Shown here: positions 92-28,730 of the stretch, piece by piece
How positions within the stretch are numbered: position 1 is the first letter of the stretch
Layout of the letters: the number at the start of each line of letters is the position of its first letter
Source of the DNA: Parcubacteria group bacterium Gr01-1014_8
GTDB taxonomy: Bacteria > Patescibacteriota > Minisyncoccia > Phycocordibacterales > UBA2100
Length of the DNA stretch: 64,000 nucleotides
Direction: 5' to 3'
Assembly: GCA_007376385.1 (NCBI GenBank)
Contig: VMGC01000005.1
Location: 32,001-96,000, forward strand
Position numbers and translations under genes: made by a program
The notes under the pieces: generated by a model
Seen by the model: only the letters and a program-made list of their open reading frames with translations
Told to the model about the DNA's origin: nothing
Databases searched by the model: none

Positions 92-388
92 TCAGTCGAG
101 TACTCGGACAAGTCTGGATCGCATAACGTTGTAATATGTATTGTCCGGGTACCGTTTATCTCTCGCCTTGACGAGTTCAGGTTTGAAGTCACGTATATCC
201 TCTTCGGACATGGTCTTGGGGCCTACCCAAGCTGTTTCGGTGTTGCCAACTTTATCGAGCTTTAAAACACGGAGTACAGTACCAGCGCGAATATTCCCAC
301 TGAAGAATCGAGCATGAGATGCATACTTAAGCATCGCAAAACATTCTTCCTCTATGGGTAAAGAAAGCCCTTCGTGCTGTTCTCCCAT
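92..388 (-). CDS. Hypothetical small protein (about 99 aa). The C-terminal part of the longer 92..826 ORF reads like a real protein; start chosen at the internal Met (MGEQHEG...).
   Basis: ORF track 92..826 (-). Plausible globular sequence only downstream of Met147. It is divergent from the operon at 595. No family recognised. Confidence 0.3.
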   Translation of the reverse strand: MGEQHEGLSLPIEEECFAMLKYASHARFFSGNIRAGTVLRVLKLDKVGNTETAWVGPKTMSEEDIRDFKPELVKARDKRYPDNTYYNVMRSRLVRVLD

Positions 389-416
389 GTAAGGCGCATT
401 GTACCGTTTGTCTAGC

Positions 417-524
417 TTATTTGCGAGCGTTGCGAGTAAAATGCAAAAGAGCACTTTTGCATTCCCGAGCCGAGGAGCAAACACAGGTTCAATACCTCGG
501 AGCAAGCTCCGAGGAACCTTTATT
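417..524 (+). ncRNA. Candidate small structured RNA, repeat copy 1. Order of parts: TTATTT box, GCGAGCGTTGCGAG, hairpin 441-462, CCGAGCCGAGGAGC, terminator-like hairpin 495-514, then UUUAUU.
   Basis: Near-identical copy at 38889-38996 and a diverged copy at 15593-15759 whose changes keep both stems paired (one as a G-U pair). Hairpin plus U-tract at the 3' end. Confidence 0.45.
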
Positions 525-594: not shown

Positions 595-1110
595 ATGTTA
601 CGCCTTTTGACGCAGATGATCCGGACTGGCAAGAAGACCGAACCGGCTCCAATACTGGAGCCAATTGACGAGGTCGGGGAGAACCTCCGCAATGCCATTC
701 ATACGCTCTACGGAGGGCGTATGCTCCGTATCCGCCACGTGGATGCCGGCTCGACAAACGGAGAGGAATTCGAGATGACGGCGCTTGGCAACGCCTACTA
801 CGACATGGAGCGATTCGGACTTTCATTTGTTGCCTCTCCCCGGCACGCTGACATTTTGACCGTATCCGGGCCAGTAACGCGCAATATGGAACACGCGCTC
901 AAGACTGCGTATGAAATGACGCCGAAGCCTCGCATTGTCATCGCAGTCGGAGACGGCGCAATTGACGGAGGAATCTGGAAAGATTCGTACGCAATTGTGG
1001 GAGGGGTGAAGGATGTTATTCCGGTTGACGCCGAAATTCCCGGAGATCCACCGTCTCCGCTTGATCTGCTAAAAGGATTTCTAAATGTGTTGCAAGGCGC
1101 AAGAAAATAG
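595..1110 (+). CDS. NuoB/HycG-like hydrogenase small-subunit homolog in which all four N2 [4Fe-4S] cysteine ligands are replaced.
   Basis: GSCNGCE corresponds to GSTNGEE here, MGACALSGG to VGDGAIDGG, and PGCPP to PGDPP. The rest of the sequence aligns to NuoB/HycG (PKPRIVIAVG..., VIPVD). Confidence 0.8.
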   Translation: MLRLLTQMIRTGKKTEPAPILEPIDEVGENLRNAIHTLYGGRMLRIRHVDAGSTNGEEFEMTALGNAYYDMERFGLSFVASPRHADILTVSGPVTRNMEHALKTAYEMTPKPRIVIAVGDGAIDGGIWKDSYAIVGGVKDVIPVDAEIPGDPPSPLDLLKGFLNVLQGARK

Positions 1111-1115
1111 TTTTT

Positions 1116-3080
1116 ATGGTTGCGTCTTTTTTTGTTGCCTCGCTGATTTTGCCGCTTGTAGCAGGAGTTGCTGCGCTTCTTCTCCTGCGTACAAAAGCGG
1201 GTCACATGCTCACGCAATTGGTTTTTGCTCTCGGCGGCCTAAGCGGTGTCGTTGGCGCAACGTTGTTCTATGCGAGCGATGGAGCGAGCACCGTCGTTTT
1301 TCATACGGCACTCTTTAGTCTTGTTGTCGGGACGCTTTCAGTATTCTTTTTGGGAATTATATCCGTCGGTGTTCTTCTCACATCGTTGTATGCGCTTGAG
1401 GGTCTGCGCAGATACAAAAGCGTCTATTCACTCCCGTGGCTTGCCGTTGCGTCTGCTTTTTTCATATTCGGCATGCAGGCAACGGTCATGGCCTCCTCTG
1501 TTGCGGGTTTTCTCGTTGCGTGGGAGTTGATGTCCGTCGCCGCATATTTCCTCGTTATAGCGGATGGCACTGAAGAATCACTGCATGCAGGCTTCTCGTT
1601 TTTTATCATGGCGCACATCGGGTTCGCGAGTCTTGTCGCAGGATTTCTACTTCTTTCTGCGGGCAATCCCTTTGCAGAGTGGCCGGAAGTAGCGCTCGCC
1701 GCAAAAACCATGACGCCGGCGACGCTCTCCGTCGCGTTCTCGCTTTTATTCATCGGCTTCGGCTCAAAAGCGGGTCTTGCCCCGCTCCATCAGTGGCTGC
1801 CCATGGCGCATCCGCAAGCGCCGAGCCACGCTTCGGCGTTGCTATCCGGCGTCATGTTGAAAGTCGCGCTTTTTGGGTTCATTCAATCGCTGTTCTTGTT
1901 TCCATCGGTTCCCCTATCATGGGGCGTTGTTGTCCTTGTGGTAGGACTCGTGTCGGCTTTCTTCGGCGTTCTGCACGCAGTCGTCGAGAGCGACATGAAA
2001 CGAGTACTCGCATGGAGCAGCATCGAGAACATGGGCCTTATTTTCTCTGGCGTAGGCGCAGCAATGATATTGCGCACGTTGCCGTACGAGGCAGGACCCG
2101 TACTCGCATCATCTATCGCCATTTTCGTTGCGCTCCATATCATCAATCACTTTCTCTTCAAGAGCGGGCTCTTCATGGCTGCGGGCGTTATCGTATCGGA
2201 AGTGCATTCTCGTGACATGGATATCATGGGGGGTTTAGCGCAAAAGTGGCCCATCTTCTCCGGCGTTTTTCTAGCTCTCGCGCTCGCAGCGGCAGCGTTG
2301 CCTCCGTTCGGTACATTCTTTGGCGAGTGGATGTATCTGCAATCTCTCGCACTTGCGCTTGTCGGTCTGCCTTTGCCGCTTTCCGTCGTTGCGGGACTCG
2401 TCCTCGCAGCCGTCGCATTGGTGAGCGGCCTTGCTATCGTTGCGTTCGTAAAAATGTTCTCAAGCGTCTTTTTAGGGAGAGCTCGAAATGAACATGCGGA
2501 ACATGTGGGGATGATGCCAATGTCTCTTATGTGGCCGCCAATGGTGTGCGCGATTCTTTCGATTGTTGCCGGGGTGCTTGCATTTCCTTTTTTTTCATCG
2601 CATTTTATGGATGGCGCGAGCATCATGCAAGATGTCGTTATCGTACAAGGCGCCTCCATGAACGCTTGGATCCTGTGGGCGCTTATCGCGGGTCTTGCGA
2701 TCATAGCGCTTCTTCTCGCGCGTTTTCTTCGCGTGCCGGTTCGCATTACGGATACGTGGGATTGCGGGCAGCCGCTCACGTCGCGAATGGAATATACGGC
2801 AACTGGATTCTCGGCACCGTTCCGCTTTTTCTTCCGTGCGTTCTTAGTATCGCGAAAAGAAATGATCGTTACGCCTATCTCTTCAGAGAATCCGTGGATA
2901 GCGAACCGGCGTCTCGAGTGGAGCATTACCTCAACATGGGAGCGGCTCTTTTATCGCCCCGTCGGGCAGGCATTGCTTCGTTTTGCTGAATACGCGCGCA
3001 AGTTCCAAAGCGGCGTCGTCCAGATGTACCTTTTGTTTGTTGTTATCGCTCTTGTCGGAGCATTCATTTTTGCGCTATGA
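1116..3080 (+). CDS. HyfB/HycC-like (NuoL/MrpA family) antiporter-type membrane subunit.
   Basis: 654 aa polytopic protein with the WLPMAHPQAPSHASALLSGVMLKVALFG motif typical of HycC/HyfB. Confidence 0.8.
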   Translation: MVASFFVASLILPLVAGVAALLLLRTKAGHMLTQLVFALGGLSGVVGATLFYASDGASTVVFHTALFSLVVGTLSVFFLGIISVGVLLTSLYALEGLRRYKSVYSLPWLAVASAFFIFGMQATVMASSVAGFLVAWELMSVAAYFLVIADGTEESLHAGFSFFIMAHIGFASLVAGFLLLSAGNPFAEWPEVALAAKTMTPATLSVAFSLLFIGFGSKAGLAPLHQWLPMAHPQAPSHASALLSGVMLKVALFGFIQSLFLFPSVPLSWGVVVLVVGLVSAFFGVLHAVVESDMKRVLAWSSIENMGLIFSGVGAAMILRTLPYEAGPVLASSIAIFVALHIINHFLFKSGLFMAAGVIVSEVHSRDMDIMGGLAQKWPIFSGVFLALALAAAALPPFGTFFGEWMYLQSLALALVGLPLPLSVVAGLVLAAVALVSGLAIVAFVKMFSSVFLGRARNEHAEHVGMMPMSLMWPPMVCAILSIVAGVLAFPFFSSHFMDGASIMQDVVIVQGASMNAWILWALIAGLAIIALLLARFLRVPVRITDTWDCGQPLTSRMEYTATGFSAPFRFFFRAFLVSRKEMIVTPISSENPWIANRRLEWSITSTWERLFYRPVGQALLRFAEYARKFQSGVVQMYLLFVVIALVGAFIFAL

Positions 3081-3163
3081 CCCCATGAGAGAAACGATCT
3101 AAATTCTTATGAATCACACCAATTGTAACGAGATGCAGTGCTTCGCTCAGGATCATATCTATT

Positions 3164-3180
3164 TTTCTCACGGGGTATGA
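3164..3180 (+). promoter_or_regulatory. Conserved 17-bp intergenic motif, copy 1 (TTTCTCACGGGGTATGA); the ATG of the HycD-like gene is embedded in it.
   Basis: Matches the motif family TTATCTCAYGGGGTATA. Confidence 0.4.
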
Positions 3181-4124
3181 CCGTCACGATACTCATTTTG
3201 CAGTTCTTCTTAGTGCTCGCGGCAGCGCCCGCGACGGTGGGGATCGTGCGTAAAATAAAAGCGCGCTTTCAGAACAGGCGCGGCGCACGCATCACGCTTC
3301 CATACTGGTCGCTCCTTTCGTTGCTTCGAAAAGAAATGACCATCACGCGGCACAGTTCGTGGGTGTTTCGCATCGTTCCGTTCGTGGTCTTTGGAAGCGC
3401 ACTCGCGCTAGCAGCGCTTATTCCTTCTTTTGCTGTAGGAATTCTGGCCGCGAGCATGAGCAACATTTTTCTTGTCGGCGCCGTCGCCGCGCTCGGCTCC
3501 GCGTTCCTTGTTTTTGGCGGCATGGATACCGGAAGCACGTTCGGCAACATGGGCTCCAGCCGCGAGATGACGATAGCCTCATTGATAGAGCCTGCCGTAT
3601 ACGTATCGCTCGCTTCTCTTGCAACGCTCTCCGGTTCGTGGAGTTTGGATGGCATCGCACTATTTTTTGCCGCAAGTAAATGGGTGGAGATAATACTTCC
3701 GGCCTCACTTACGTTAGTGGCCCTCGTCTTTGTGCTGCTCGCAGAAAATGCGCGCTATCCGGTGGATAATCCTGCAACGCACCTTGAGCTCACAATGGTG
3801 CATGAGGCGATGGTCTTAGAATATTCCGGCCCATACCTCGCAATGCTCGAATACGCGTCGTGGATAAAATTGACTGCGATGCTGATGCTCGTGATGAATC
3901 TCGTAGCGCCGTGGGGTATTCTGACTTCTCCATTTGCTCTTGGGGCCACTCTCATCGCGCTCGTTGCATTTGCCATTAAGCTCGGCGTCGGTGCATTCGT
4001 CATTGCGTTCATCGAATCAACGATCGTAAAAATGCGCTTCTATCGAATGCAGGAATACATGTCTCTTGCGCTCATCGTTGCGCTCGGCGGTCTTGCTATT
4101 TCGCTTGTCTCAATTGCCGTATGA
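3177..4124 (+). CDS. HycD/HyfC (NuoH-like) membrane subunit.
   Basis: The N-terminus MTVTILILQFFLVLAAAPATVGIVRKIKARFQNRRG matches the HycD/NuoH start. Start set at the internal ATG at 3177 rather than the track start at 3138. Confidence 0.8.
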   Translation: MTVTILILQFFLVLAAAPATVGIVRKIKARFQNRRGARITLPYWSLLSLLRKEMTITRHSSWVFRIVPFVVFGSALALAALIPSFAVGILAASMSNIFLVGAVAALGSAFLVFGGMDTGSTFGNMGSSREMTIASLIEPAVYVSLASLATLSGSWSLDGIALFFAASKWVEIILPASLTLVALVFVLLAENARYPVDNPATHLELTMVHEAMVLEYSGPYLAMLEYASWIKLTAMLMLVMNLVAPWGILTSPFALGATLIALVAFAIKLGVGAFVIAFIESTIVKMRFYRMQEYMSLALIVALGGLAISLVSIAV

Positions 4125-4774
4125 GTGCGCAGCTTACATTCGACCTCCCGACATTATTTGCATGCGGCATGCTGCTTCTATCGTTGATAATGGTAAGCCG
4201 CATGCGTCTTTCGTCGCTTGTCGGTATTTTCCGTTACCAGAGCGCGCTTCTTGCCATCTATGCGGTCATCCTTGCGATCTCTCATGATGAACCAGAATTG
4301 CTCGCGGTCGCCCTTTTTATTGCACTTGTGAAAGTGGTCCTCATACCAGCGTTTCTCATTCGCGTCGCAAAGCAAAATGGCGTGTCAGAGAGGCTTGATT
4401 CGTATTTGCGTCCGACGACGTCCACATCAGTAGGTTTGGTTGCCATCCTTCTCGCGTTTGCCGGAGCAGAGGCGACATTTGCTACGAGCGCGGGGCTCAT
4501 CATAGTTGCGTGCGTTTTTGCTCTCATTCTGACGGGGCTTATTCTTCTCATTACGCGCAAAGACATGTTCGGGCAGGGAATCGGATTTCTCGTGATGGAG
4601 AACGGCATCTATGCATTCGGGCTCGCTCTTGCTGGCGGAATGCCCATCTTTGTCGAGCTTGCAGTTCTGTTTAACCTTCTTGCGCTCACCGTTCTGATGG
4701 TTCTGTTGTTCCGAGTCGCGCAAAAGGTCCACTCTTCTGTTTCAACCGAGCATTTTAAGCGACTCATCGATTGA
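4121..4774 (+). CDS. HyfE-like small membrane subunit (217 aa).
   Basis: Size, multi-helix hydrophobic profile and position between the HycD-like and HyfF-like genes. 4-nt ATGA overlap with the upstream gene. Confidence 0.6.
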   Translation: MSAQLTFDLPTLFACGMLLLSLIMVSRMRLSSLVGIFRYQSALLAIYAVILAISHDEPELLAVALFIALVKVVLIPAFLIRVAKQNGVSERLDSYLRPTTSTSVGLVAILLAFAGAEATFATSAGLIIVACVFALILTGLILLITRKDMFGQGIGFLVMENGIYAFGLALAGGMPIFVELAVLFNLLALTVLMVLLFRVAQKVHSSVSTEHFKRLID

Positions 4775-4775
4775 T

Positions 4776-6227
4776 ATGACTGTATCTCTGCTCCTCATGG
4801 TTATTCTTGTCGCTGCTGCGATGCCGTATCTCTGTGCCACAACGAAACAGGTGCGTTCGCTCGCGATGATAGGAAGTACGAGTATTTTCCTGCTTTCTCT
4901 CTTTGTCGGGATTCCGGCGCTGTTTGCTCCAGCCGCTGTTACCGGCGCGGGTTTGTGGTACATCGATGCTCTGGGCGGGTTCTTTGTTCTCTTGATCGGA
5001 TTCGTTCAGTGGACAGGGACGCTCGTAAGCATGACGTACATGAAGGAAGAAGAGGCGCACGGGACGGTAACCGCGGCTAAGGTCAAACGATACTTCGTAC
5101 TCTTGCATCTTTTCGTCCTCGCGATGATGCTTGCTGTCGTCTCGAATAACACAGGCATCGTGTGGGTTGCGCTCGAGGGCACGACGCTGGTGACGACACT
5201 CTTGGTCGGTTTTTACGAACGAAAAGAATCTCTTGAGGCTGCCTGGAAATATCTCATTCTGTGCTCATCGGGCATTGCGTTCGGATTCTTGGGAATTCTT
5301 GTCATGTTCTATGCGGCTTCGACGACGGGGGCGGAAGGCGTTATCGGCATGACGTGGTCAGGGTCGGCACTTCTTGAAGCGGCGCTTCCCGTAAGCGTCG
5401 TAAAGATAGCGTTTGTGCTCTTGCTGATAGGGTTTGGCACCAAGGTTGGTCTTGTCCCGATGCACGCCTGGCTCCCGGACGCCCATTCAAGCGCGCCATC
5501 GCCAATTTCTGGCATGCTCTCGGGGGTGCTTCTCAACGCCGCGTTATTGCCGATACTTCGTTTCAAAAATATTGTTGACGGCGTTGCCGCGCCTGGTTGG
5601 ACCGATCAGCTTCTCATCGTATTCGGGGTTCTCTCTATCGCGCTTCCTGCAGCGTTCGTACTTGTTCAGCGCGATTACAAAAGGTTGCTCGCATATTCGA
5701 GCATTGAACACATGGGGCTCATTACGCTGTCGGCAGGACTCGGCGCGATTGGTTCCGTCGCCGCGACAATTCACATTGCGGGTCACGCTCTCGCGAAATC
5801 TGCGCTCTTCTTTGCGGCGGGAAACATCCTCTTGAAATATCACAGCACTAAATTCGAGAATGTCTCGGGGGTTACACGCATATTGCCTTACACAGGAGGG
5901 CTCTTTCTCGTTGCATTTTTGGCGCTTCTCGGCGTTCCGCCTTCACCCTTGTTTGCGAGCGAATACTTTATGGCGGCTGCTGCGATAGGCACGCATCCCT
6001 ACGCCACCGGCGCCGTCTTTCTCGCCCTCACTATCGTATTTGCCGGATTTGTGCGGCTCTTGATGCCGATGTTGTTTGGGGAGAGTCCTGACAGAGGTGG
6101 GCGGGAGAGATGGAACATATCGCACACCGCTATCACGTTGAATATCGTTTTACTTATCGGACTTGGTATTGCTCTCTGGATTGCTCCTGGAGAGGCGATC
6201 ATCCAACGCATTGCAGAAATTATTTAG
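4776..6227 (+). CDS. HyfF/HyfD (NuoN/NuoM-like) antiporter-type membrane subunit.
   Basis: WLPDAHSSAPSPISGMLSGVLLNAALL motif; 483 aa polytopic protein. Confidence 0.8.
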   Translation: MTVSLLLMVILVAAAMPYLCATTKQVRSLAMIGSTSIFLLSLFVGIPALFAPAAVTGAGLWYIDALGGFFVLLIGFVQWTGTLVSMTYMKEEEAHGTVTAAKVKRYFVLLHLFVLAMMLAVVSNNTGIVWVALEGTTLVTTLLVGFYERKESLEAAWKYLILCSSGIAFGFLGILVMFYAASTTGAEGVIGMTWSGSALLEAALPVSVVKIAFVLLLIGFGTKVGLVPMHAWLPDAHSSAPSPISGMLSGVLLNAALLPILRFKNIVDGVAAPGWTDQLLIVFGVLSIALPAAFVLVQRDYKRLLAYSSIEHMGLITLSAGLGAIGSVAATIHIAGHALAKSALFFAAGNILLKYHSTKFENVSGVTRILPYTGGLFLVAFLALLGVPPSPLFASEYFMAAAAIGTHPYATGAVFLALTIVFAGFVRLLMPMLFGESPDRGGRERWNISHTAITLNIVLLIGLGIALWIAPGEAIIQRIAEII

Positions 6228-6231
6228 AAAT

Positions 6232-7752
6232 ATGACCATTCAATCACTCACACAAAGGATCGGGATCGCGGGAAAAGACTTCGTACTAGTTCCTCGTGAT
6301 GACCTGCACCGGCATGCAGAAGTTTGCGTTGAGGCAGGCGCTCCTCTCATGTTCATGTACGCAACAGAAGAGGCGAACGGATTTGTGGTACATGTAGTAT
6401 TTTCCGCAGAAGACGGCTTTCTGACATTGAAGGCGGAGCTGCCGCGCGATGATCCGACGTATCCGTCGCTCACTCGCAGTATCATGGCAGCGCATTGGTA
6501 TGAGCGATTGATGCATGACCAGTTCGGCATAGTTGCAGAGGGGCACCCCGACTGGCGACGACTCATACACCACGAGAATATCCCTGAAGGCACGCATCCG
6601 CTCCGTAAAGATTTTGCGTGGAATACGAAGCTTCCGCATGCGAATGTTCCGTACCCGATGCACGCAGTCACTGGAAAGGGAATTTATGAAGTTCCGGTCG
6701 GGCCGATACACGCAGGAATAATTGAGCCGGGCCACTTTCGTTTCAACGTTCGCGGAGAGAGAATTCTGACGCTCGAAGGAAAACTGTTCTTCAAGCATAA
6801 GGGCGTCGAGAAATTGGTTGAGGGAAAGACACCGGAGGAGGCTTTTCCCTTCATCGAAAGAATTTCTGGCGACATGGTCGCCGGGCATGCACTCGCGTTT
6901 GCGGAAGCTGTTGAAGCTGCATCTGGAGTCGCCATATCAGCGCGTGCGAAACATCTGCGTGTCCTGTGGAGCGAATTGGAGCGAGCAACGGCGCATGTTT
7001 TTGATATGGGGAATATGGGAGGCAACGGCACAGGATTTACATTCATGGCGGCACAAGGCTTTCGCATGGTCGAAGATATGCGTCGTTTGTATCAATCGCT
7101 CGTAGGGCACCGATTCTTGCGAGGCGCTATTGTGCTTGGCGGCGCGCATGATATTTCTGAGGGTGATGTTGAGAAGATCCGTGCCGTGATAGATGATATT
7201 GAGCGAGACATGAAAAAAGTTCTCGCAATTGCGTATGGAAGCGACGGGCTTATGGAGCGGTTTGAAACGACGGGAATTCTTTCACTTGAGGCCGCGAAAG
7301 CATACGGGGCGCGGGGAACGCCAGCGCGGGCGTCAGGGGTTACTCTCGATATACGAACGGGTCATCCCTATGCCGCGTACAAAGAGTTAGGAGTGAGCGT
7401 GGTGACTGAAAAAGGCGGCGATGTCGCGGCACGCTTCAAGGTCCGCGACAGGGAACTCACGGAGTCGTTCCGTCTTATCCGCGAAGTATTGAGAACTCTT
7501 CCGAAAGGCGAGGCGAAAACGAATTCCAATTTCAAACAGGGGAGTGCGCTCGGCGCAGTTGAATCATGGCGCGGCGCTATCATTGACTGGGTGAGGCTTG
7601 ATGCGGAAGGAAGAATTGACCGCTGTGCAATTTCAGACCCATCGTTCTGTAACTGGTCTCTTTTTGGCGAACTTGCGCCTGGCAACATTGTCCCGGACTT
7701 TCCTTTGTGTAATAAGAGTTTGAACCTTTCGTATTCAGGGACGGACCTCTAA
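6232..7752 (+). CDS. Fused NuoC-NuoD / HycE-like large-subunit homolog with both [NiFe] CxxC ligand motifs degenerate.
   Basis: The L1 motif RxCGxCxxxH reads RISGDMVAGH here. The L2 motif DPCxxC reads DPSFCN. Start set at ATG 6232 just after the upstream stop at 6227. Confidence 0.8.
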   Translation: MTIQSLTQRIGIAGKDFVLVPRDDLHRHAEVCVEAGAPLMFMYATEEANGFVVHVVFSAEDGFLTLKAELPRDDPTYPSLTRSIMAAHWYERLMHDQFGIVAEGHPDWRRLIHHENIPEGTHPLRKDFAWNTKLPHANVPYPMHAVTGKGIYEVPVGPIHAGIIEPGHFRFNVRGERILTLEGKLFFKHKGVEKLVEGKTPEEAFPFIERISGDMVAGHALAFAEAVEAASGVAISARAKHLRVLWSELERATAHVFDMGNMGGNGTGFTFMAAQGFRMVEDMRRLYQSLVGHRFLRGAIVLGGAHDISEGDVEKIRAVIDDIERDMKKVLAIAYGSDGLMERFETTGILSLEAAKAYGARGTPARASGVTLDIRTGHPYAAYKELGVSVVTEKGGDVAARFKVRDRELTESFRLIREVLRTLPKGEAKTNSNFKQGSALGAVESWRGAIIDWVRLDAEGRIDRCAISDPSFCNWSLFGELAPGNIVPDFPLCNKSLNLSYSGTDL

Positions 7753-7803: not shown

Positions 7804-8721
7804 ATGTATTGGGGAGAAGACCTGGATGAGCGCCTGTATGAGGGGATAGAGGAGACGCAGATAGAGGGTGTCGAGCCAATTCGAGCGGGACTACCCATAA
7901 CTCACTGGAGTTATTCGTCTCTCATGTGTTTTCTTAGGAATCCGCTGGCCTGGTATAAACGTTATGTCGAGAAGGTGTATGACACACCCTCGTCCCCCGC
8001 AGGTATTATCGGGCGCGCCGCGCACGTTGCGTTGCAGCATTTTTATGGTCTGCCTGTGCGTGACCGCACGCAGACAGGCGGCATCGCGAAAGGGGGAGCA
8101 ATAGATCTAGGTCTGGAATATTTGAGGAATGTGCCGGATTTTGAGGTGAATTTTGGGAAAGCGAAGACAAAAAGGGAAAAAAAGGAGAAACGAGCCAGCA
8201 TGGAGCGCGAATATCTGCAGGCGATCGGTTTTTATCTTGAAAAGCCGCCGAAGTATAATGTTGTTGCGATAGAGGAAAAATCAACGATAAAGGTAGATGG
8301 CCTCAAACTTCCCATACGCGCTATCTCTGACCTTGTGGTTCGTTCCGCCGTCGATAAAAAAGCACTCGACATCGTGGACCATAAATTCGTCGATTCGTTC
8401 AGTTCTCTTGGGGGACAAAAAACACTCTTTATCATACAAGCGATATTCAACTACTACACAGTCCAGAATACACACGGGAAGCCTGTGCGGCGTTTTATTT
8501 TGCAAGAGTGCAGAAAAAGAAGGAACGCGGATGGTAAAAGCCAGATGCGACGCTACATCATCGAATATGCCAAGTGCAAAGAAGAGTTCGCCATCTTTCA
8601 CCGTCTTATACGCGATGCGACTGCCGAAATAGCTAGAGAGCGGCTGTATCTTCCAAATCCATCCGACATGTTCGAAGGCGAGAATTCCTTCGACATCTAT
8701 AAACTTGGACTTGCTGGTTAA
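7804..8721 (+). CDS. PD-(D/E)XK-family nuclease (RecB/Cas4-like fold), standalone.
   Basis: N-terminal SYSSL..F...P..W signature, then D (AISDLVV) and a D-x-K motif (LDIVDHKF). No cas genes nearby. Confidence 0.5.
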   Translation: MYWGEDLDERLYEGIEETQIEGVEPIRAGLPITHWSYSSLMCFLRNPLAWYKRYVEKVYDTPSSPAGIIGRAAHVALQHFYGLPVRDRTQTGGIAKGGAIDLGLEYLRNVPDFEVNFGKAKTKREKKEKRASMEREYLQAIGFYLEKPPKYNVVAIEEKSTIKVDGLKLPIRAISDLVVRSAVDKKALDIVDHKFVDSFSSLGGQKTLFIIQAIFNYYTVQNTHGKPVRRFILQECRKRRNADGKSQMRRYIIEYAKCKEEFAIFHRLIRDATAEIARERLYLPNPSDMFEGENSFDIYKLGLAG

Positions 8722-16300: not shown

Positions 16301-16855
16301 CTAGTGCGATTGGTTTTGCGATGCGAATTCCATGAACGTTGCCAGGAATTTCTTCAGCGACGCGATTGTTCTCTCGTCTGTAAGTTCCAAGTTCTCATCG
16401 AATTTCTCCTTTGCTGCCCCAAGATAGAATTCCGGCTGGCCCATGACCTTTGCGTCGAAATAGCCAAGGACGCGGCGTACATCGTATTGCGCAAACGATG
16501 CTCCACGAGGACCAGAGGAAGCACCGAGTATGCCGACGGGTTTTTTATCCCACGACAGCGGGTCGCTCTCCGGCCTCGAACTCCAGTCGAGGAAGTTTTT
16601 TATAGGGCCCGATGGTGTGCGATTAAATTCTGGTACGGCAAGCAAAACTCCATCTGCGGCCTTTATTTTTTCACGAAGCTCAGCAGCCAAAACAGGGAAA
16701 TTCGAGGCTTCAAGGTCTTGATCAAAGACAGGGAGTCCATCAATAGAAACAATTTCAATGTTCACGCCTTCGGGAGCGAGTTTTTTTGCTGCTCGTAGAA
16801 GTGCCGAGTTGTACGAGGCTTTTCGAAGACTGCCGGAAAATGCGACGATGTTCAT
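16301..16855 (-). CDS. NADPH-dependent FMN reductase (flavodoxin-like fold).
   Basis: MNIVAFSGSLRKASYNSALLRAA... typical of the NAD(P)H-dependent FMN reductase family. Confidence 0.75.
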   Translation of the reverse strand: MNIVAFSGSLRKASYNSALLRAAKKLAPEGVNIEIVSIDGLPVFDQDLEASNFPVLAAELREKIKAADGVLLAVPEFNRTPSGPIKNFLDWSSRPESDPLSWDKKPVGILGASSGPRGASFAQYDVRRVLGYFDAKVMGQPEFYLGAAKEKFDENLELTDERTIASLKKFLATFMEFASQNQSH

Positions 16856-16982
16856 ACTAGTGGGAGTATACACGTATCGTGGGCAGTCTGCTCAATGTTC
16901 CTGAAATATGAACATACCATCTTGTAGCCGGTCGGCACCATTAAGGTATGCTGAGTCTTTCGAAAAGTCGTGATACGAAAGG

Positions 16983-18635
16983 TTAAACACTCGTTTTCAC
17001 CATGTATTTTTCAATATCTGCTACGGTGCCTACGACTTTCTTACCGGGATTGAAAACGTTGTGAGGATCGAAGATGTGTTTCGTCTGCGAAAAGAGCTCG
17101 AGCATCTTTGGAGAGAACATTTCACTCAAAAAGGGCGTACGGATGATGCCGTCGTTATGTTCACCCGTCGTCGAGCCGTGATATTTTTTCACCAGTTCAT
17201 ACACCTTTGGGGCGAGTTCCAGGATCGTTCCGTGTACGTCTGGTTTTGAGAGATCCACGAGCGGGAATATATGAAAATTACCGTTGCCGATGTGTCCCGT
17301 GACGGCGTATATAAATTTCTCTTTATCAAGGAGGGCAAATAGTTGCGGAAGAAATTCAGGGTATGTTTGCGGAGGCACCACGAAATCATCAATAAACGCA
17401 GCAGCCGTAAGTCCGGGGAGTTTTTTTCTCAGGATAGCGAATGCTTCTCGTCTAACGACCCAGTATTTCTCCGCGGCTTTTTTATTTCTGGCGATGCGCG
17501 CTTCAACAGCGAGTCCCTCGAGGGCTCTCTCGGCTGCGAGCGCTCTGTGGAGCGCTTTTACCTGCGTATCTTCAGAAAATTCTGCCATCAATACAAGTTT
17601 TGGTATGCCGCCGCGCAATACGAGACCTACTTCCGGCAGGAAAGAGAAACCGAGGCGTATTGCTCTTGAGAGTCCCATTTGTGCTAAGAGTTGCGGAAGC
17701 AACCTTATCGCAAGTTTGAACGTATGGTCATCATAGGATTCGAATGATTCCGGATCGTTTTCAAGGATACGACGAACAACTTCCGGCAGTATCGCGAGGT
17801 CAGACAAAAATATGACAAGCATAGAACGATGCCGTCTTAACGTCACAAGTCCCAGCTTCATACGCGTCACGAGTCCCAGCGTTCCCTGCGAGCCAGTGAT
17901 GAGTTTCGTGAGGTCGAACACGTCGCTTTCCCGATCGTACACATTCCAAAGCGCATACCCAGCGGAGTTTTTTGATACGCGAGGCGTTGCAGCTCTTATT
18001 TCCTGCCAATTATTTTGGATGAGCTCATGCATGCGGCGGTAGACTTCACCCTCGAAATTCTGCTCCTCTTTTTTTGATTCGAGGTCATTTCGGGAGAGCG
18101 GGCGGATGGTTGCTTTTGAACCGTCGGAGAGAATAACGTCCAGCTCGCGAACATAGCGGTCCGTTTTGCCATAGCGAAGAGTGAGTTCGCCTGCAGAGTT
18201 ATTGGAGACAATGCCGCCGAGCGCGCATAACTCGCGCGAGGCTGGGTACGAGGGGAGCAGCATGCCCGTTTTTTCCAGTGTTTGTTTCTCGAAATCACGG
18301 TAGTACATGCCGGGCTCTGCGACGGCATAGTCCGAACCGACGTCAAACATACGGTTCATGTATTTAGTGAACGAAACGACTATCGAGTCCGTGAGAGGTC
18401 CGCCAGACATGTCGGTTCCCGCACAGCGGCCAGTTACCGAGATATGTTGGCCTTTCTTCTTCTCTTGCGCGACAAATTTCACCACGGCAGCGACATCGTC
18501 GGCGTTTTTGGGGTACACGACGAGCGAAGGCTTCCGTTCAAAAATACTGGTATCGCGGCTGAAATCGTGCAGAGTTTTTATGTCGTCAGCGACGTCTCCT
18601 TTTATGAGAGCGGCGACCTTCTCGCGAAGCATCAT
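16983..18635 (-). CDS. FAD-linked oxidase (GlcD/D-lactate dehydrogenase-like, PCMH-type FAD-binding domain).
   Basis: N-terminal FAD-binding domain motifs (VVYPKNADDVAAVVKF, TGRCAGTDMSGG), 550 aa. Confidence 0.75.
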   Translation of the reverse strand: MMLREKVAALIKGDVADDIKTLHDFSRDTSIFERKPSLVVYPKNADDVAAVVKFVAQEKKKGQHISVTGRCAGTDMSGGPLTDSIVVSFTKYMNRMFDVGSDYAVAEPGMYYRDFEKQTLEKTGMLLPSYPASRELCALGGIVSNNSAGELTLRYGKTDRYVRELDVILSDGSKATIRPLSRNDLESKKEEQNFEGEVYRRMHELIQNNWQEIRAATPRVSKNSAGYALWNVYDRESDVFDLTKLITGSQGTLGLVTRMKLGLVTLRRHRSMLVIFLSDLAILPEVVRRILENDPESFESYDDHTFKLAIRLLPQLLAQMGLSRAIRLGFSFLPEVGLVLRGGIPKLVLMAEFSEDTQVKALHRALAAERALEGLAVEARIARNKKAAEKYWVVRREAFAILRKKLPGLTAAAFIDDFVVPPQTYPEFLPQLFALLDKEKFIYAVTGHIGNGNFHIFPLVDLSKPDVHGTILELAPKVYELVKKYHGSTTGEHNDGIIRTPFLSEMFSPKMLELFSQTKHIFDPHNVFNPGKKVVGTVADIEKYMVKTSV

Positions 18636-20105: not shown

Positions 20106-21380
20106 CTACACGAAAGAGTCAGGAATGGGGAATTTCTTGCACATCTTTCGGATGTCTTCGCGTACCCGTCTGTGGATTTTTTTATCACTTTTGTTTTCAA
20201 GTGTCTCTATCATGAGTTCCGCCACTTTTGCGCACTCTTTTTCTTTGAAGCCGCGCGTCGTGATGGCGGGCGTGCCAAAGCGGATACCTGACGGGTCCAT
20301 GGGGCCGCGCGTGTCGTCTGCGATCGAATTCTTGTTGAGCGTGATGCCGACTTCGTCGAGAAGCGTCTCTGCTTCTTTTCCGGGGATGCCAAGCGAACCG
20401 TAGACGTCGGCGAGAATGAGGTGGCTGTCCGTACCGCCCGTTATCATTCGAATATTACTTATCTTGAACACCTTTTCCATCGCCTTTGCGTTTTTTAAGA
20501 TTTGTTTGGCATACGTGCGGTACGCAGGTTTCAATGCTTCGCCGAAACAAACTGCCTTTGCAGCGATGGTATTCATCAGGGGTCCTCCCTGAAGTCCGGG
20601 AAAGATGGATTTATCTATCTTCTTCGCGATTGTTTCGTCTTCACGTGTGAGGATCATACCGCCGCGAGGCCCCCGCAGCGTCTTGTGCGTCGTTGTGGTC
20701 ATGATGTCGAAGCCATCGTCAAACGGATTTCTCATCGCTTTGCCCGCGATAAGTCCTGCGATGTGTGCGATGTCCATAACAGCGAGAGCGCCGACTTCCC
20801 GTGCGATCTCGACAAATTTTTTGTAGTTGAGTTCGCGCGGATATGCAGAGTAGCCGGCAAGGACTATTTTTGGCTTCTCGCGCTTTGCGACGTGCAGCAT
20901 CTCGTCGTAGTCTATCTCACCCGTATCGACATTTTTCATTTTGTAACGTACGAATTTGTATATCTTTGTGAGATATGTGACGGGGTGTCCATGCGTAAGG
21001 TGACCGCCATGCGAGAGGTCCATGCCGAGGATAGTGTCTCCCGGTTCGAGGAGCGCAAAATACATACCAACGTTTGCCGGTGCCCCGGCATGCGGCTGGA
21101 CGTTGACGAATGTGCAGTTGAAGAGTTTCTTGGCTCGGTCCCGTGCAATGTCCTCGACAATGTCGGTGTATTTCTGACCGCCATAATAGCGCCTGCCGGG
21201 GTAGCCTTCTGAATATTTATTCGTGAGGTTCGAGCTGTTTGCTTCGCGAACTGCCTGAGAGACGTAGTTTTCGGAGGGAATCAATTCGAGGCCTTCTGCT
21301 TGTCGCTCTTCCTCGCCCATAAGCGCTTTGTATACGATCGGGTCTTGTTTTTTGACGTGTGGATATAATTTCTTGTTCAT
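20106..21380 (-). CDS. glyA: Serine hydroxymethyltransferase.
   Basis: LIPSENYVS and TTTTHKTLRGPRGG motifs. Start placed at MNKKLYPH... Confidence 0.9.
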   Translation of the reverse strand: MNKKLYPHVKKQDPIVYKALMGEEERQAEGLELIPSENYVSQAVREANSSNLTNKYSEGYPGRRYYGGQKYTDIVEDIARDRAKKLFNCTFVNVQPHAGAPANVGMYFALLEPGDTILGMDLSHGGHLTHGHPVTYLTKIYKFVRYKMKNVDTGEIDYDEMLHVAKREKPKIVLAGYSAYPRELNYKKFVEIAREVGALAVMDIAHIAGLIAGKAMRNPFDDGFDIMTTTTHKTLRGPRGGMILTREDETIAKKIDKSIFPGLQGGPLMNTIAAKAVCFGEALKPAYRTYAKQILKNAKAMEKVFKISNIRMITGGTDSHLILADVYGSLGIPGKEAETLLDEVGITLNKNSIADDTRGPMDPSGIRFGTPAITTRGFKEKECAKVAELMIETLENKSDKKIHRRVREDIRKMCKKFPIPDSFV

Positions 21381-21421
21381 AAGAAAATGTTGGCGGCTAA
21401 AAGTTATGTAAGGCACCTAAA

Positions 21422-22447
21422 TCATATGCGAATTATATTTTCTTTTTTCTGTTCCTCAAAACCTCCGATCGTCGCGATATCAGCCTTGAGGGATGGATGT
21501 GATCTGTAGTTCTCGAGTGTAATGTCGGCTTGGGTAAATGTATCAATATCCTTCACGCCGGGATTCAGGCGAACCGTTGGGAAAGGGTATGGGTCGCGCT
21601 CCACTTGTTCTTTCATTTGGTCGAAGTGGTTCGAGTAGATATGTACATCGCCGAATGTATGTACAAACTCTCCCGGCGGGATGTTCGTCACTTGAGATAC
21701 TAAGAGAAGCAGCAACGAGTAGCTTGCGATATTGAACGGGACACCAAGAAAAAGATCTGCGGAGCGCTGGTACAAGCCCAAATTGAGCTTGCCGTTTGCG
21801 ACCTGGAACTGGAACATCGTGTGGCAGAACGGCGGAACATGCGATTTTTGTCCTTCCGAGGCCATTTCGTAAATGAAATCGGGATTCCAAGCGCTTACGA
21901 CGTACGATTTGCGGTCCGGCTTTGACTTCAGCCCGGAAATAACCCAACTTAATTGATCTATCTCACGCCCATCTTTTGCAGGCCAGCGGCGCCACATGCG
22001 GCCGTAAATTGTAATAAGGTCTGCCCATTTTACGACGAATGGGTCGCTCGCGGGCGTCTCTGTAAGCTTCGCAATGAATTCCTGCTGGGTCGCGTACTTC
22101 TGTTTCTCCGTATTCCACATCTGATAGTGCTTCCATGCCCACTCATCCCAGATATGAATATTCTGGTCGAGGAGCGGCTTGATGTTCGAGTTTCCTGAAA
22201 GGAACCACAGTAGTTCGACGACGATGCCGCGCCAGAACGTCTTTTTTGTCGTCAGGAGGGGAAAGTCTTTGCTGACATCGAAACGAATTTGCCGTCCAAA
22301 AACGGACCTGATGAACGGCGGCTTTTCACCCTTCTGTGTGTATCCTTCCAGAACGACGTTATTAAAGAAAAGTTCTTTGTCCGCGCCGTTCTTTAGTATA
22401 TCCCGGCAAAGATCTAGGTATTGAAATTCTGGATGGCGCACGCTCAT
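21422..22447 (-). CDS. thyA: Thymidylate synthase (long form with insertion).
   Basis: PPCHTMFQFQV..LYQRSADLFLGVPFNIASY active-site region. Confidence 0.9.
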   Translation of the reverse strand: MSVRHPEFQYLDLCRDILKNGADKELFFNNVVLEGYTQKGEKPPFIRSVFGRQIRFDVSKDFPLLTTKKTFWRGIVVELLWFLSGNSNIKPLLDQNIHIWDEWAWKHYQMWNTEKQKYATQQEFIAKLTETPASDPFVVKWADLITIYGRMWRRWPAKDGREIDQLSWVISGLKSKPDRKSYVVSAWNPDFIYEMASEGQKSHVPPFCHTMFQFQVANGKLNLGLYQRSADLFLGVPFNIASYSLLLLLVSQVTNIPPGEFVHTFGDVHIYSNHFDQMKEQVERDPYPFPTVRLNPGVKDIDTFTQADITLENYRSHPSLKADIATIGGFEEQKKENIIRI

Positions 22448-22459
22448 GTTTGGAGGATA

Positions 22460-23023
22460 TCACAATTTCTTCCGCCTGTTTTTACGTTTAGCGGGGGCAA
22501 AATGCTTCCAGTTGTCCTTGGCGAAACGACCAACCTCCTTATAGCTTTGTTCTGGCGGAGAGGTGAGTTCGGAAAAGGTCAGCTGTGCAATGTCCATGCC
22601 GGGGCGCAAGATGATGGGTACCGTGTTTTGATTAGTGAGCTCAAGGGTGATGTTGAGGAAGTGACCGGGATTTATGATGCCGGCGGTGTTGTGAACCATA
22701 AGACCGATGCGTGCAAGAGATGATTTACCGCTGAGTTGGATGAGGTAATCATTCGAACCAAAGAACTCTTTCGACGCTGCGAGCACCGATATTCCGGGGC
22801 GGAGGATGAATTCATGACCGTCTTTCACTTTAACTTCGCGGGTTTTTCCATACATTCGTTTTTGAGGGTCGATGAAGTCCGTCGCGTAGATGTCACTCAG
22901 CTGGAAAGCATTTCCAAGGCGGATGTCGTAGGTTGCTGGCTGAAGTCTTTTGCGGTCAAATGGCTTGATAGTGATCGTGCCTGCTTTCACGGCTTTCTCG
23001 ATATCGGTGTCGGAGAGATACAT
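22460..23023 (-). CDS. dcd: dCTP deaminase.
   Basis: MYLSDTDIEKAV... GISVLAASKE...; about 188 aa from the internal Met. The track ORF extends upstream but that part is non-homologous. Confidence 0.8.
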   Translation of the reverse strand: MYLSDTDIEKAVKAGTITIKPFDRKRLQPATYDIRLGNAFQLSDIYATDFIDPQKRMYGKTREVKVKDGHEFILRPGISVLAASKEFFGSNDYLIQLSGKSSLARIGLMVHNTAGIINPGHFLNITLELTNQNTVPIILRPGMDIAQLTFSELTSPPEQSYKEVGRFAKDNWKHFAPAKRKNRRKKL

Positions 23024-23034
23024 AGTCGGATGGG

Positions 23035-23709
23035 CTATTCTATAACAAAAATCTTTTCCGTGCCGTAGTATTCCGGCCAATGTTGATTGTAATAGGCGAA
23101 CATGCGGGCGAGGCGGTCTTGTTTTAATTCGTCGACATGTAGTTCCTGCATGAGGTTTCGTATCTCTCCCTCGACCTGTTTTGTCTCTGTGCCGGTGTCG
23201 ACGACACGTTCGAATTCGGCCAGCCATCCATATCCAGCATTTTTGTCGAGCGTAACGTTCGTCCCCTTGCATACATACTCTTCGCGCTCTCGTGACCACT
23301 TAGCTTCGTATTCAAAACCCGACGATATGACAAGTTTATCGAGCTCATTCAGCGTGAGCGGCACCTTCTCCTCAAACTCCTGGCGAGAAATACCGTTTGC
23401 GCTCGTTGTATCGTCCACTGATGCTTTTACAACCAAGAGTACAGTTCCGTCCTTATCGCGGGTACGTACAGAAAATTCCTTTGCGTGCTCAGCTAGGTCG
23501 TTTAGCCGCGTTTGCGCATCTTTTGATAGGAAGGGTGCTGCAGCTTCGCTGAGCTTAGCTAAGGTCCCACTCTTGAAATAGTGGTTGAGTTGTTTATTTC
23601 TTGATCGCAGTTTAACGCTTGAGTCTGCCGCCCTCATCGCTGCGCGCACCTCGTTTGCTCTCTCAGATGACCCGAGAAGCGATTTTATCTCAACTTCGAT
23701 GGAATGCAT
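23035..23709 (-). CDS. CYTH-domain protein (triphosphate tunnel metalloenzyme / CyaB-like).
   Basis: N-terminal IEVEIK motif characteristic of the CYTH tunnel; 224 aa. Confidence 0.55.
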   Translation of the reverse strand: MHSIEVEIKSLLGSSERANEVRAAMRAADSSVKLRSRNKQLNHYFKSGTLAKLSEAAAPFLSKDAQTRLNDLAEHAKEFSVRTRDKDGTVLLVVKASVDDTTSANGISRQEFEEKVPLTLNELDKLVISSGFEYEAKWSREREEYVCKGTNVTLDKNAGYGWLAEFERVVDTGTETKQVEGEIRNLMQELHVDELKQDRLARMFAYYNQHWPEYYGTEKIFVIE

Positions 23710-23721
23710 TGTCAGAGTATA

Positions 23722-24252
23722 TCAATTCGAGACCTTATACCGAAGAAGAAGGGTCCCGCTTTTGTTCAGCTTTTTGAAACCGATGAATCGCAGCTGTATT
23801 TGTTTGAATGTGCCGTCGAGTATTGGAAGTCCTGCGCCAAATGCCTTCGGCTCAACGGTAACGTGGATCTCTGAGACGAGCTTAGCCTTAAGGAACGCCG
23901 CGTTCAGCCGCGGACCTCCTGCAAGCACTGCCTGTCGGTATCCTGCTTTTTCGAGCGCAGCGATCAGGCGGACAGGCGAGAGCGAAGTGAATTCGAGTTG
24001 TCCCTTAACCTCATCTTTTTTAAGTTTCCAGGGTTGACTGGTCATCACGAGCCGGCGAATTTTTGATACAAGTTTCAATTGCCTGCGGTGCGCAAGGTAT
24101 GTATTGCGCCCAATGATAACAACGCCAAGTTTTCGGATGAGACTCCGAAAATATTTCTGGTCCTCTGCGGATGCCCAGACATGGGGCTGTTCTCCGCGCG
24201 GACCCGTGATCCTTCCATCTGCGGACGCGACGACAGCGAGGATAGTTTTCAT
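23722..24252 (-). CDS. RibD C-terminal-domain / DHFR-like reductase.
   Basis: MKTILAVVASADGRIT... AVLAGGPRLNAAFL, typical of the RibD_C/DHFR-like family. Confidence 0.6.
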   Translation of the reverse strand: MKTILAVVASADGRITGPRGEQPHVWASAEDQKYFRSLIRKLGVVIIGRNTYLAHRRQLKLVSKIRRLVMTSQPWKLKKDEVKGQLEFTSLSPVRLIAALEKAGYRQAVLAGGPRLNAAFLKAKLVSEIHVTVEPKAFGAGLPILDGTFKQIQLRFIGFKKLNKSGTLLLRYKVSN

Positions 24253-24258
24253 GGGTTT

Positions 24259-24948: not shown

Positions 24949-24955
24949 GGCGGGC

Positions 24956-24975
24956 AGTATACCCCATGAGATAGG
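24956..24975 (-). promoter_or_regulatory. Conserved motif, copy 4 (minus orientation); its TATACT is 7 nt before the ATG of the YhhQ-like gene.
   Basis: AGTATACCCCATGAGATAGG on the plus strand. Confidence 0.5.
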
Positions 24976-25042
24976 CACGTTCTACCATCTCGAGTGGCGG
25001 AATGTTGCGACGCCTGTTCAGATCTTCAAATAGAGAACTCAT

Positions 25043-25061
25043 TTATCTCACGGGGTATAAC
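25043..25061 (+). promoter_or_regulatory. Conserved motif, copy 5 (plus orientation); its TATAAC is 6-8 nt before the ATG/GTG in front of DHFR.
   Basis: TTATCTCACGGGGTATAAC. Confidence 0.5.
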
Positions 25062-25102
25062 GTGCAAATGTGCGACTGCAACAAGCGGGTATACTGAGAT
25101 GC

Positions 25103-25699: not shown

Positions 25700-25729
25700 A
25701 AACGAGGGGAAAATGGTGTACTCTCTGGC

Positions 25730-28729: not shown

Positions 28730-28730
28730 T

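Follow-up and report, generated by a model that had tools for sequence, protein, structure and literature searches.

An Ehr-type operon of a Parcubacteria group bacterium encodes a conserved six-subunit membrane complex without a recognisable redox cofactor site

The stretch of DNA considered here, 64,000 nucleotides of contig VMGC01000005.1 (positions 32,001 to 96,000, forward strand) in assembly GCA_007376385.1 of Parcubacteria group bacterium Gr01-1014_8, is referred to as the window and carries close to its beginning an operon of six genes (595-7752, plus strand) that, judging from the encoded proteins, belongs securely to a clade of hydrogenase-related Ehr complexes found in bacteria of the candidate phyla radiation (CPR). 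A preceding sequence-only reading had described the encoded complex as redox-dead. No Ni-Fe or Fe-S site is recognisable in it, in line with that description, and a redox role of the encoded subunits seems very unlikely, which is a more guarded statement than the original one. The six proteins are under strong purifying selection, and the operon lies directly behind genes of the F-type ATP synthase in several relatives. The complex could act as a secondary-active ion translocator that is not driven by redox chemistry and works alongside the F-type ATPase, a tentative proposal that we consider to fall somewhat short of an even chance.

The six open reading frames are closely packed and intact, with intergenic distances of -4 to +5 nt and a single exception of 58-97 nt before the NuoH-like gene, and for this reason the segment is regarded as an operon. 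The gene identities were assigned from Pfam and NCBIfam matches and are as follows:

595-1110, plus strand: small subunit, NuoB/HycG/MbhJ-like, 171 amino acids, no Cys (PF01058, 3.5e-25)
1116-3080, plus strand: HyfB/HycC-like antiporter-type subunit, 654 amino acids (PF00361; NF005086, hydrogenase-4 subunit B, 2.8e-130)
3177-4124, plus strand: NuoH/HycD-like subunit, 315 amino acids (PF00146; alternative GTG start at 3138)
4121-4774, plus strand: HyfE-like small membrane subunit of the NuoK/NuoJ/MbhD type, 217 amino acids, about seven predicted helices (NF008556, 3.7e-12)
4776-6227, plus strand: HyfF-like antiporter-type subunit, 483 amino acids (PF00361; NF005044, 7e-119)
6232-7752, plus strand: large subunit, fused NuoC and NuoD/HycE-like, 506 amino acids (PF00329, PF00346 and a weak PF00374 match)

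The start of the small-subunit gene at 595 is backed by the N-terminus 'MLxLLxxIxxTGxxTEP', conserved in 120 homologues, the database gene call being 616, and the most likely start of the NuoH-like gene is 3177, with an alignment to HycD (9.6e-33) that begins at residue 2. Among the membrane subunits, the HyfB-like protein matches HycC (2e-47) and can also be aligned to MbhH, NuoM, MrpA and MrpD, the HyfF-like protein matches MbhH (3e-35), and the predicted structure model of the HyfE-like protein resembles MbhD. These identities, together with the Ehr signature of the large subunit described below, agree with the six-gene Ehr-type operon that had been proposed from the sequence.

The small subunit has no recognisable Fe-S binding site, as far as its alignments to related proteins of known structure can tell. 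In HMMER alignments to MbhJ (6cfw_J, 4e-27) and HycG (7z0s_G, 3e-26), residues T54, E57, G121 and D151 occupy the positions of the four cluster cysteines, and not a single Cys is present in the whole protein. The segment 'GSCNGCDIE' of MbhJ stands opposite 'GSTNGEEFE', both 'IGACPTGG' of MbhJ and 'YGACGNSGG' of HycG stand opposite 'VGDGAIDGG', and 'PGCPP' stands opposite 'PGDPP'. The codons at these positions are:

754-765, plus strand: codons T54 and E57, at the positions of cluster Cys1 and Cys2 (CxxC of group-4 small subunits)
952-957, plus strand: codons D120-G121, G121 being at the position of cluster Cys3
1045-1047, plus strand: codon D151, at the position of cluster Cys4 (PGCPP to PGDPP)

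The ligand columns are free of Cys in all of the 120 closest small subunits. E57 is present in 120/120 of them, D120 is invariant, and D151 is found in 118/120, with T, N or S at position 54 and Gly (116 sequences) or Ala (4 sequences) at position 121. As a control, the same four columns of a MAFFT alignment are Cys in 58/58 Ehr and 28/28 true-hydrogenase small subunits, and since the relatives are uniformly Cys at these columns, the ligand positions have been correctly identified. The earlier claim that all four cluster cysteines are substituted is thus confirmed by two kinds of alignment. Moreover, an AlphaFold2 model of the small subunit (pLDDT 85) superposes on MbhJ at 1.6 Å over 133 columns.

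The large subunit, which aligns to HycE (7z0s_E, 1.8e-60) and also to MbhL in HMMER, has likewise lost the NiFe site, all four ligands being replaced by S212, M215, S500 and G503, and the same replacement residues are found in 42 clade members. The motif 'RVCGIC' of HycE stands opposite 'RISGDM' (R-I-S212-G-D-M215), exactly as had been read from the sequence, and 'SLDPCYSCTD' of HycE stands opposite the extreme C-terminus 'SLNLSYSGTDL', after which translation stops. The corresponding codons are:

6865-6876, plus strand: codons S212-G-D214-M215, the former L1 motif RxCGxC, of which 'SGD' is common to all Ehr
7729-7752, plus strand: codons S500-Y-S-G503-T-D-L-stop, the former L2 motif DPCxxC, with no C-terminal extension

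The protein ends three residues past the L2 position and, therefore, has no maturation peptide. For L2, the sequence-only reading was mistaken, as it took DPCxxC to have become DPSFCN with at most one stray Cys. 'DPSFCN' (residues 469-474) is a separate conserved motif located upstream, and both HycE and MbhL align L2 to the C-terminal NLSYSG; Cys473 and Cys493 were also rejected as ligands, as both alternate with I, V or L in relatives. The corrected alignment strengthens the case for the loss of the NiFe ligands (4/4 lost), and the profile alignments revealed no hidden Cys ligand in either subunit. In addition, the positions of Tyr87 and His38 (Thermus thermophilus Nqo4 numbering), which we take to be the quinone-binding residues, are occupied by Gly213 and an Ile, respectively, in the alignment to Aquifex aeolicus NuoCD.

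The position of the operon among its relatives was assessed with 146 loci from a scan of one genome per species and from metagenome contigs, which were classed by the ligand columns of both subunits:

Class A, the clade of the window: SMSG or SASG in the large subunit and [T/S/N]-E-[G/A]-[D/N] in the small subunit; 26 loci, gene order always S-B-H-E-F-L
Class A2, other losses: 7 loci, from a second CPR-rich clade (TCDD, DCGD, SEGD) and Methanosarcinales (D-P/T-D-N)
Class B, Ehr with an Fe-S cluster: [S/A]xSG in the large subunit and CCCC in the small subunit; 57 loci, usually no ferredoxin-like gene
Class C, true hydrogenases: CCCC in the large subunit and CCCC in the small subunit; 28 loci, in most of which a ferredoxin domain is fused or adjacent

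The class B loci belong to Nitrospirota, Rokubacteria, Streptomyces, Nonomuraea, Acidobacteria, Methylococcales, Methanomassiliicoccales and others. Three motifs are common to all Ehr classes, namely 'VGP[IV]HAGIIEPGHFRF', 'R-x-S-G-D' and 'NIVPDFPLxNKS[LF]NLSYSGxDL', and the large subunit of the window carries this signature as VGPxHAGIIEPGHFRF, R-x-S-G-D and NIVPDFPLxNKS-NLSYSG-xDL. Furthermore, 92% of the columns that are conserved in the large subunits of Fe-S-containing Ehr are unchanged in class A, as against 63% in true hydrogenases. Both results sustain the assignment to Ehr that had been made from the sequence, which had also regarded the whole pattern of losses as typical of that class. 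This holds for the absence of HycF/NuoI, which is common in six-gene Ehr operons, but not for the loss of the cluster, since the CCCC of the small subunit is kept in 57/57 non-CPR Ehr operons sampled and in 0/120 members of the CPR clade.

In neighbour-joining trees, class A and the second CPR-rich clade are each recovered in 100/100 bootstraps, whereas their sister relationship (33/100) and the monophyly of all Ehr (23/100) are weakly supported, so that neither a single loss event nor a specific donor lineage is claimed. The large subunit is 100% identical to a database protein (P0001) of Gr01-1014_8, and among its 120 best database relatives, all those named are Patescibacteria/CPR (Kaiserbacteria, Uhrbacteria, Minisyncoccota and others). 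In a profile hidden Markov model search of 1.84 billion representatives, the clade collapses to one cluster at 50% identity, and about 25 further representatives without an Fe-S cluster were retrieved, some of them from Chloroflexota and Dehalococcoidia, whose ligand positions are again rich in Asp and Glu. A CPR clade of Ehr has been published, so the class assignment itself is not new: a monophyletic CPR group within Ehr, lacking the NiFe cysteines and judged unable to interact with H2, was described by Jaffe et al. 2020 (BMC Biol 18:69; PMC7304191), the main text of which is silent on the Ehr small subunit, the loss of the Fe-S cluster, the membrane subunits and the synteny with atp genes. 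The searchable literature contains no prior description of cluster loss in the small subunit or of atp synteny in CPR Ehr, although an earlier mention may exist; thus, the cofactor-free state of the CPR clade, its conservation pattern and its atp synteny appear to be new.

The residues that replace the ligands vary between lineages, being T-E-G-D in the CPR clade, T-C-D-D and D-C-G-D in the second CPR-rich clade, D-P/T-D-N in Methanosarcinales, and D-V-D-D and D-E-D-S in others. Hence, Cys ligands have seemingly given way to Asp or Glu repeatedly, in what we infer to be independent lineages, and the three nucleotide changes needed to convert Cys into Glu argue for selection of an acidic pocket. 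Loss of the small-subunit cysteines, mainly in favour of Asp, Asn or Glu (D-P/T-D-N, D-A-A-D, S-A-E-S), was seen independently in two Methanosarcinales loci (L063 and L080) and in two Chloroflexota/Dehalococcoidia representatives (P0296 and P0324).

Two other variants were noticed among the sampled loci. A Chloroflexota metagenome-assembled genome (JALYXG010000207; locus L028, 8603-12283) encodes a large subunit with all four NiFe cysteines (RICGAC ... ELCYAC) and a small subunit with E-C-E-D and PGDPP at the cluster positions plus an N-terminal ferredoxin-like motif, an odd combination of an apparently intact NiFe site without the proximal cluster; this small-subunit pattern recurs in a 50%-identity representative (P0318). 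In Nitrospirota, tandem Ehr operons are located on one contig (L022 and L032), one with SGTS/NLSYSG and the other with SGDT/NQSYSG, and both small subunits are CCCC.

Purifying selection on the six proteins is apparent at several levels. Both peripheral subunits have more than 120 database clusters at 56-100% identity with many invariant columns, and the identity of the large subunit ranges from 56 to 79% across 120 database clusters. Within class A, the top residue reaches a mean frequency of 0.77 in the small, 0.70 in the large and 0.66 in the NuoH-like subunit, and of 0.56-0.59 in the other three membrane subunits. The earlier view that only the antiporter-like and NuoH-like scaffold has been retained has to be abandoned, as conservation is highest in the two peripheral subunits, which are, thus, to be regarded as functional parts and not as relics.

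The membrane subunits keep every charged residue that is conserved in their Ehr and hydrogenase counterparts, including the Glu of transmembrane helix (TM) 5, the Lys of TM7, the Lys of TM8, the His/Lys of TM11 and the Glu of TM12. In the HyfB-like subunit, the channel residues E137, K218, K249, H345, K349 and E404 are present in 18/18 clade members (K249 in 17/18) and align to NuoM E144, K234, K265 and E407 and to their MbhH equivalents. Channel residues E134, K223, H337, K341 and E396 are conserved in the HyfF-like subunit, as are K71, R146, E160 and E179 in the HyfE-like subunit, and in the NuoH-like subunit R34, K52, R129, E130, E138, E190, R193, D197, H202, E204, H209, E210, E215, E280, K285 and R287 are invariant in the clade. 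The HyfF-like subunit has Asn in place of the TM8 Lys, which might suggest decay; this reading was discarded, as Asn is the commonest residue at that position in every Ehr class and in half of the true hydrogenases sampled. Changes that are specific to the clade concern the TM1-2 loop of the NuoH-like subunit (Q41L, D45T/S, K48T/S), the small subunit (P60A, F121W) and the large subunit (W117I, R184K, L207F, A208I, N254M, D266G), and, as aligned, they gather around the site of the lost Fe-S cluster.

Genes for partners of the complex were looked for in the window and in the 3.8 kb before its start. No CxxCxxCxxxC ferredoxin motif occurs in the six frames of the 64 kb window, no hyp, formate dehydrogenase or Fe-S protein family is present among the genes called over about 1-59.4 kb of it, and no other nuo family (NuoI, NuoEFG or NuoA) was detected in the window, where the HyfE-like NuoK/J-type subunit stands alone. 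The 3.8 kb upstream hold only minus-strand genes of unrelated or unknown families, among them a 137-amino-acid protein without family, DUF1905 and DUF2238, and no ferredoxin-like, hyp or formate dehydrogenase gene. The sequence-only reading had reported no HycF/NuoI, electron-input or hyp genes and had named a nuoI/hycF-like gene with a donor module just upstream as the finding to look for; the former statement is correct over this whole span and the latter was not found in the 3.8 kb. Equivalents of MrpB, MrpE and MrpG are not recognisable in the operon, and no conserved partner gene stands beside it across 26 clade loci and three further genomes. The six-gene cassette is self-contained, with neighbourhoods that vary between genomes.

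Synteny in related genomes, which had been suggested as a check, often places the operon behind genes of the F-type ATP synthase. Upstream sequence of 1.5 kb or more is available for 12 class-A loci, seven of which have atpG-atpD-atpC directly upstream on the same strand, confirmed by Pfam and separated by gaps of 29-1325 nt, whereas this adjacency is found in 0/38 class B and 0/20 class C loci. The atp-adjacent loci (L097, L098, L103, L104, L105, L114 and L007, with L018 from the second CPR-rich clade) have these genes about 30-3600 nt 5' of the small-subunit gene, and their 10 kb flanks stop short of the gene for the c-subunit of the ATP synthase.

The comparison with characterised and related systems places the operon between several of them. 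Other Ehr, such as those of Geobacter sulfurreducens (GSU0739-45), Nitrospira, Rokubacteria and actinomycetes, have the same six-subunit set, share R-x-S-G-D and NLSYSG and usually lack HycF/NuoI too; the gene order of the Rokubacteria and actinomycete operons is also S-B-H-E-F-L, and the EhrA/C/L/S composition of Geobacter equals that of the window operon. They differ in keeping the four small-subunit cysteines (57/57), in lacking atp adjacency (0/38), and in having Q41, D45 and K48 in the NuoH-like subunit and W117, R184, L207, A208, N254 and D266 in the large subunit. The best match among solved structures for four subunits is Escherichia coli hydrogenase-4/formate hydrogenlyase (Hyf; FHL-1, 7Z0S; subunits HycE, HycG, HycC and HycD), the core gene order of which (B-C-E-F-G) is preserved in the window operon. 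However, the formate hydrogenlyase enzymes have a NiFe site, three Fe-S clusters (HycG and HycF), a formate dehydrogenase module, hyp/HycI maturation and a C-terminal peptide, none of which is found here. With group 4 [NiFe]-hydrogenases in general, the operon shares the NuoH-like and antiporter-like subunits but not the Cys ligands, the ferredoxin-like subunit or the maturation peptide, and it has no 2x[4Fe-4S] subunit (HycF/HyfH/EchF/MbhN), whereas the true-hydrogenase loci sampled mostly have one.

The MBH (6CFW) and MBS/MBX (6U8Y) complexes of Pyrococcus furiosus also combine a NuoB/D/H-like module with antiporter-like subunits, but they contain three Fe-S clusters, a catalytic site and a full Mrp-type Na+ module (MbhA-G). 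The Mrp antiporter (7QRU, 6Z16) is without redox cofactors, as seems to be the case for the encoded complex, and its antiporter-like subunits show the Glu/Lys pattern found in the window, where the MrpA/MrpD-type TM5 Glu, TM7/TM8 Lys and TM12 Lys/Glu are present. Nevertheless, Mrp does not have NuoB/NuoD/NuoH-like subunits, and the window operon has a peripheral arm and no recognisable MrpB, C, E, F, G set. Lastly, complex I (NDH-1) possesses homologous NuoB, C, D, H, K/J-like and L/M/N-like cores with conserved channel residues; in comparison, the window complex has neither the N2 cluster nor the quinone ligands, with Gly and Ile standing in place of the latter, and it lacks NuoI, NuoEFG and NuoA.

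In the proposed mechanism, protons would flow through the HyfB-like and HyfF-like subunits and through the NuoH-like/HyfE-like channel, and this flow could be coupled either to the counter-movement of another cation, most likely Na+, or to an ion or ligand being bound and released in the cavity between the small, large and NuoH-like subunits. The former NiFe/N2 cavity would now contain conserved carboxylates (E57, D120 and D151 of the small subunit; D214 and E165 of the large subunit), and the complex would interconvert or use the ion gradient set up by the F-type ATPase of a fermentative CPR cell. Such a function would be Mrp-like, with the complex-I-type coupling loops retained. Mrp antiporters use the same antiporter-like subunits and have no redox module, and Na+/H+ antiporter activity has been reported for mitochondrial complex I in its deactive form. 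The translocator is favoured because the channel residues are kept, the peripheral arm is the most constrained part, the cysteines have become conserved carboxylates, and the link to atp genes recurs.

Several considerations weigh against this proposal. The atp adjacency occurs in more distant members of the clade and is absent from the window and its closest relatives, the search for partner genes in this genome covered the window and the 3.8 kb upstream of it, and the Mrp-specific small subunits MrpB/E/G are not identifiable in the operon. Na+, or any other second substrate, is putative. An enzyme active site would explain the very high conservation of the peripheral subunits no less well than an ion chamber would, and the kept channel residues would suit a pump powered by some other chemistry just as well. 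Moreover, no Ehr complex has been biochemically characterised (PMC7894505, PMC10284858), as the first reading of the operon had correctly pointed out.

A bolder version of the translocator, which we hold to be rather doubtful, is that the N2/NiFe cavity has turned into a carboxylate-lined chamber for an ion or ligand, operating with the F-type ATPase, and that the core activity of Ehr in general may not be that of an oxidoreductase. The latter idea is suggested by the cofactor-less clade keeping 92% of the Ehr large-subunit signature.

Ion pumping could also be driven by redox chemistry in trans, supplied by a separately encoded oxidoreductase, such as a formate dehydrogenase or flavoprotein, or by an organic cofactor bound non-covalently in the cavity of the small and large subunits. 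This would agree with the peripheral arm being the most conserved part and with the full retention of the Ehr large-subunit signature; in addition, a formate dehydrogenase partner has been proposed for other Ehr (PMC6349859), and the Ehr subunits of Geobacter rise on formate (PMC7894505). However, neither subunit has a Cys ligand, a NuoI/HycF relay is lacking, and any electron would need to pass through a small subunit devoid of a cluster; moreover, no conserved partner gene stands beside the operon in the clade loci and further genomes surveyed, and the quinone-binding Tyr and His of NuoD are Gly and Ile. CPR bacteria generally lack quinones and electron transport chains, which counts against this explanation as well, and we regard it as unlikely.

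By analogy with the CO2 hydration that DAB or NDH-1/Cup systems drive with the proton motive force, the complex might instead be a non-redox enzyme driven by proton flow through the membrane arm, with a putative site in the large subunit, made up of S212-G-D214, E165, H160, H168 and S500-Y-S-G503, that would convert or bind a substrate from the cytoplasm. Ehr that have the Fe-S cluster and Ehr that have lost it share the invariant motifs 'SGD' and 'NLSYSG' and an invariant beta1-beta2 loop, 'HAGIIEPGHFRF', which suggests a shared function that does not depend on the cluster, and both the high conservation of the small and large subunits and the atp adjacency would suit a machine that consumes the proton motive force. 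Nevertheless, there is no candidate substrate, catalytic metal site, conserved accessory gene or NuoD-type precedent for this purely inferential possibility, and its chances seem low.

The position beside atp genes in 7/12 loci could alternatively reflect a gated conduit for protons or ions, or a structural partner of the ATP synthase, in which the peripheral arm would be a regulatory lid that senses pH or a ligand and the acidic residues clustered where N2 used to be could change their protonation with pH. Six genes over 7.2 kb with two complete antiporter-like modules seem excessive for a channel, though, and there is no sign of a physical association with the ATPase, so that this role appears improbable. 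Finally, although every catalytic metal ligand has been lost, a decaying, functionless hydrogenase relic is effectively refuted by the conservation data, with intact and tightly coupled frames, more than 120 conserved clusters, invariant replacement residues and the retention of the operon on an 859,170-bp record.

With the coupling cavity and loops kept but no recognisable cofactor site, the strongly conserved CPR Ehr would represent a natural "redox knock-out" that could show the role of the coupling module on its own. To our knowledge, all characterised relatives (complex I, NDH-1, Fpo, Ech, FHL, MBH and MBS) convert redox reactions into ion gradients via conformational changes that start from the NuoB/NuoD/NuoH cavity. 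Mrp moves ions without this cavity. The operon also offers a tangible starting point for finding the function of the widespread Ehr family and is one of very few membrane bioenergetic machines in minimal, fermentative and probably symbiotic CPR cells; its frequent position behind the atp operon suggests a role in how these cells maintain ion gradients.

The remaining observations concern the surroundings of the operon. On its 5' side, the following elements were found:

92-505, minus strand: upstream neighbour gene (3861-4274 of locus L001), the nearest gene 5' of the operon
506-594, no strand assigned: divergent intergenic region, the presumed promoter region, with no same-strand gene before the operon

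At 495-514 (plus strand), a GC-rich hairpin of 8 bp (CCTCGGAGcaagCTCCGAGG) with a T-rich tract behind it overlaps the 5' end of the upstream minus-strand gene. A copy of the operon is also carried by GenBank CP066682.1 (859,170 bp, Ca. Kaiserbacteria), the size of which is consistent with a complete chromosome. Downstream, a PD-(D/E)XK nuclease gene (7804-8721, plus strand) begins 52 nt past the operon, and a PD-(D/E)XK nuclease and/or a UvrD-like helicase-nuclease (1051 amino acids in L085) follows the cassette on the same strand in 10 related loci; this probably reflects synteny without a functional link. A gene for a DsbA-like thioredoxin (PF13462/PF01323; 8718-9491, minus strand) is situated 1 kb downstream of the operon and has a counterpart behind the cassette of the Kaiserbacteria record; a DsbB homologue (PF02600; 15046-15582, plus strand) is encoded 7 kb downstream. 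The usual electron acceptors of DsbB are quinones, and CPR bacteria would not be expected to synthesise these.

An FMN reductase-like gene (PF03358) lies beside that of a 550-amino-acid FAD-linked oxidase of the D-lactate dehydrogenase type (PF01565/PF02913) at 16301-18635 on the minus strand; these are soluble flavoenzymes with no linkage to the operon. Another ion-transport component is a P-type cation ATPase of 879 amino acids (PF00690/PF00122/PF00689; 46806-49445, minus strand), after which a PQQ-type glucose/sorbosone dehydrogenase-like gene is found (45524-46801, minus strand). The rest of the window is housekeeping in nature, with purine and thymidylate synthesis, histidyl-tRNA synthetase, the P-type ATPase, sugar enzymes and two-component systems. 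The de novo purine block is nearly complete (purL 25730-28729, purQ 29014-29811, purE 30176-30709, purM 30706-31749, purC 31715-32707 and purB 34004-35404) and is accompanied by a thymidylate/folate block comprising the serine hydroxymethyltransferase gene (20106-21380), thyA (21422-22447), a dCTP deaminase-like gene and folA (25103-25699), so that the biosynthetic capacity encoded at 20106-35404 exceeds the usual view of CPR bacteria.

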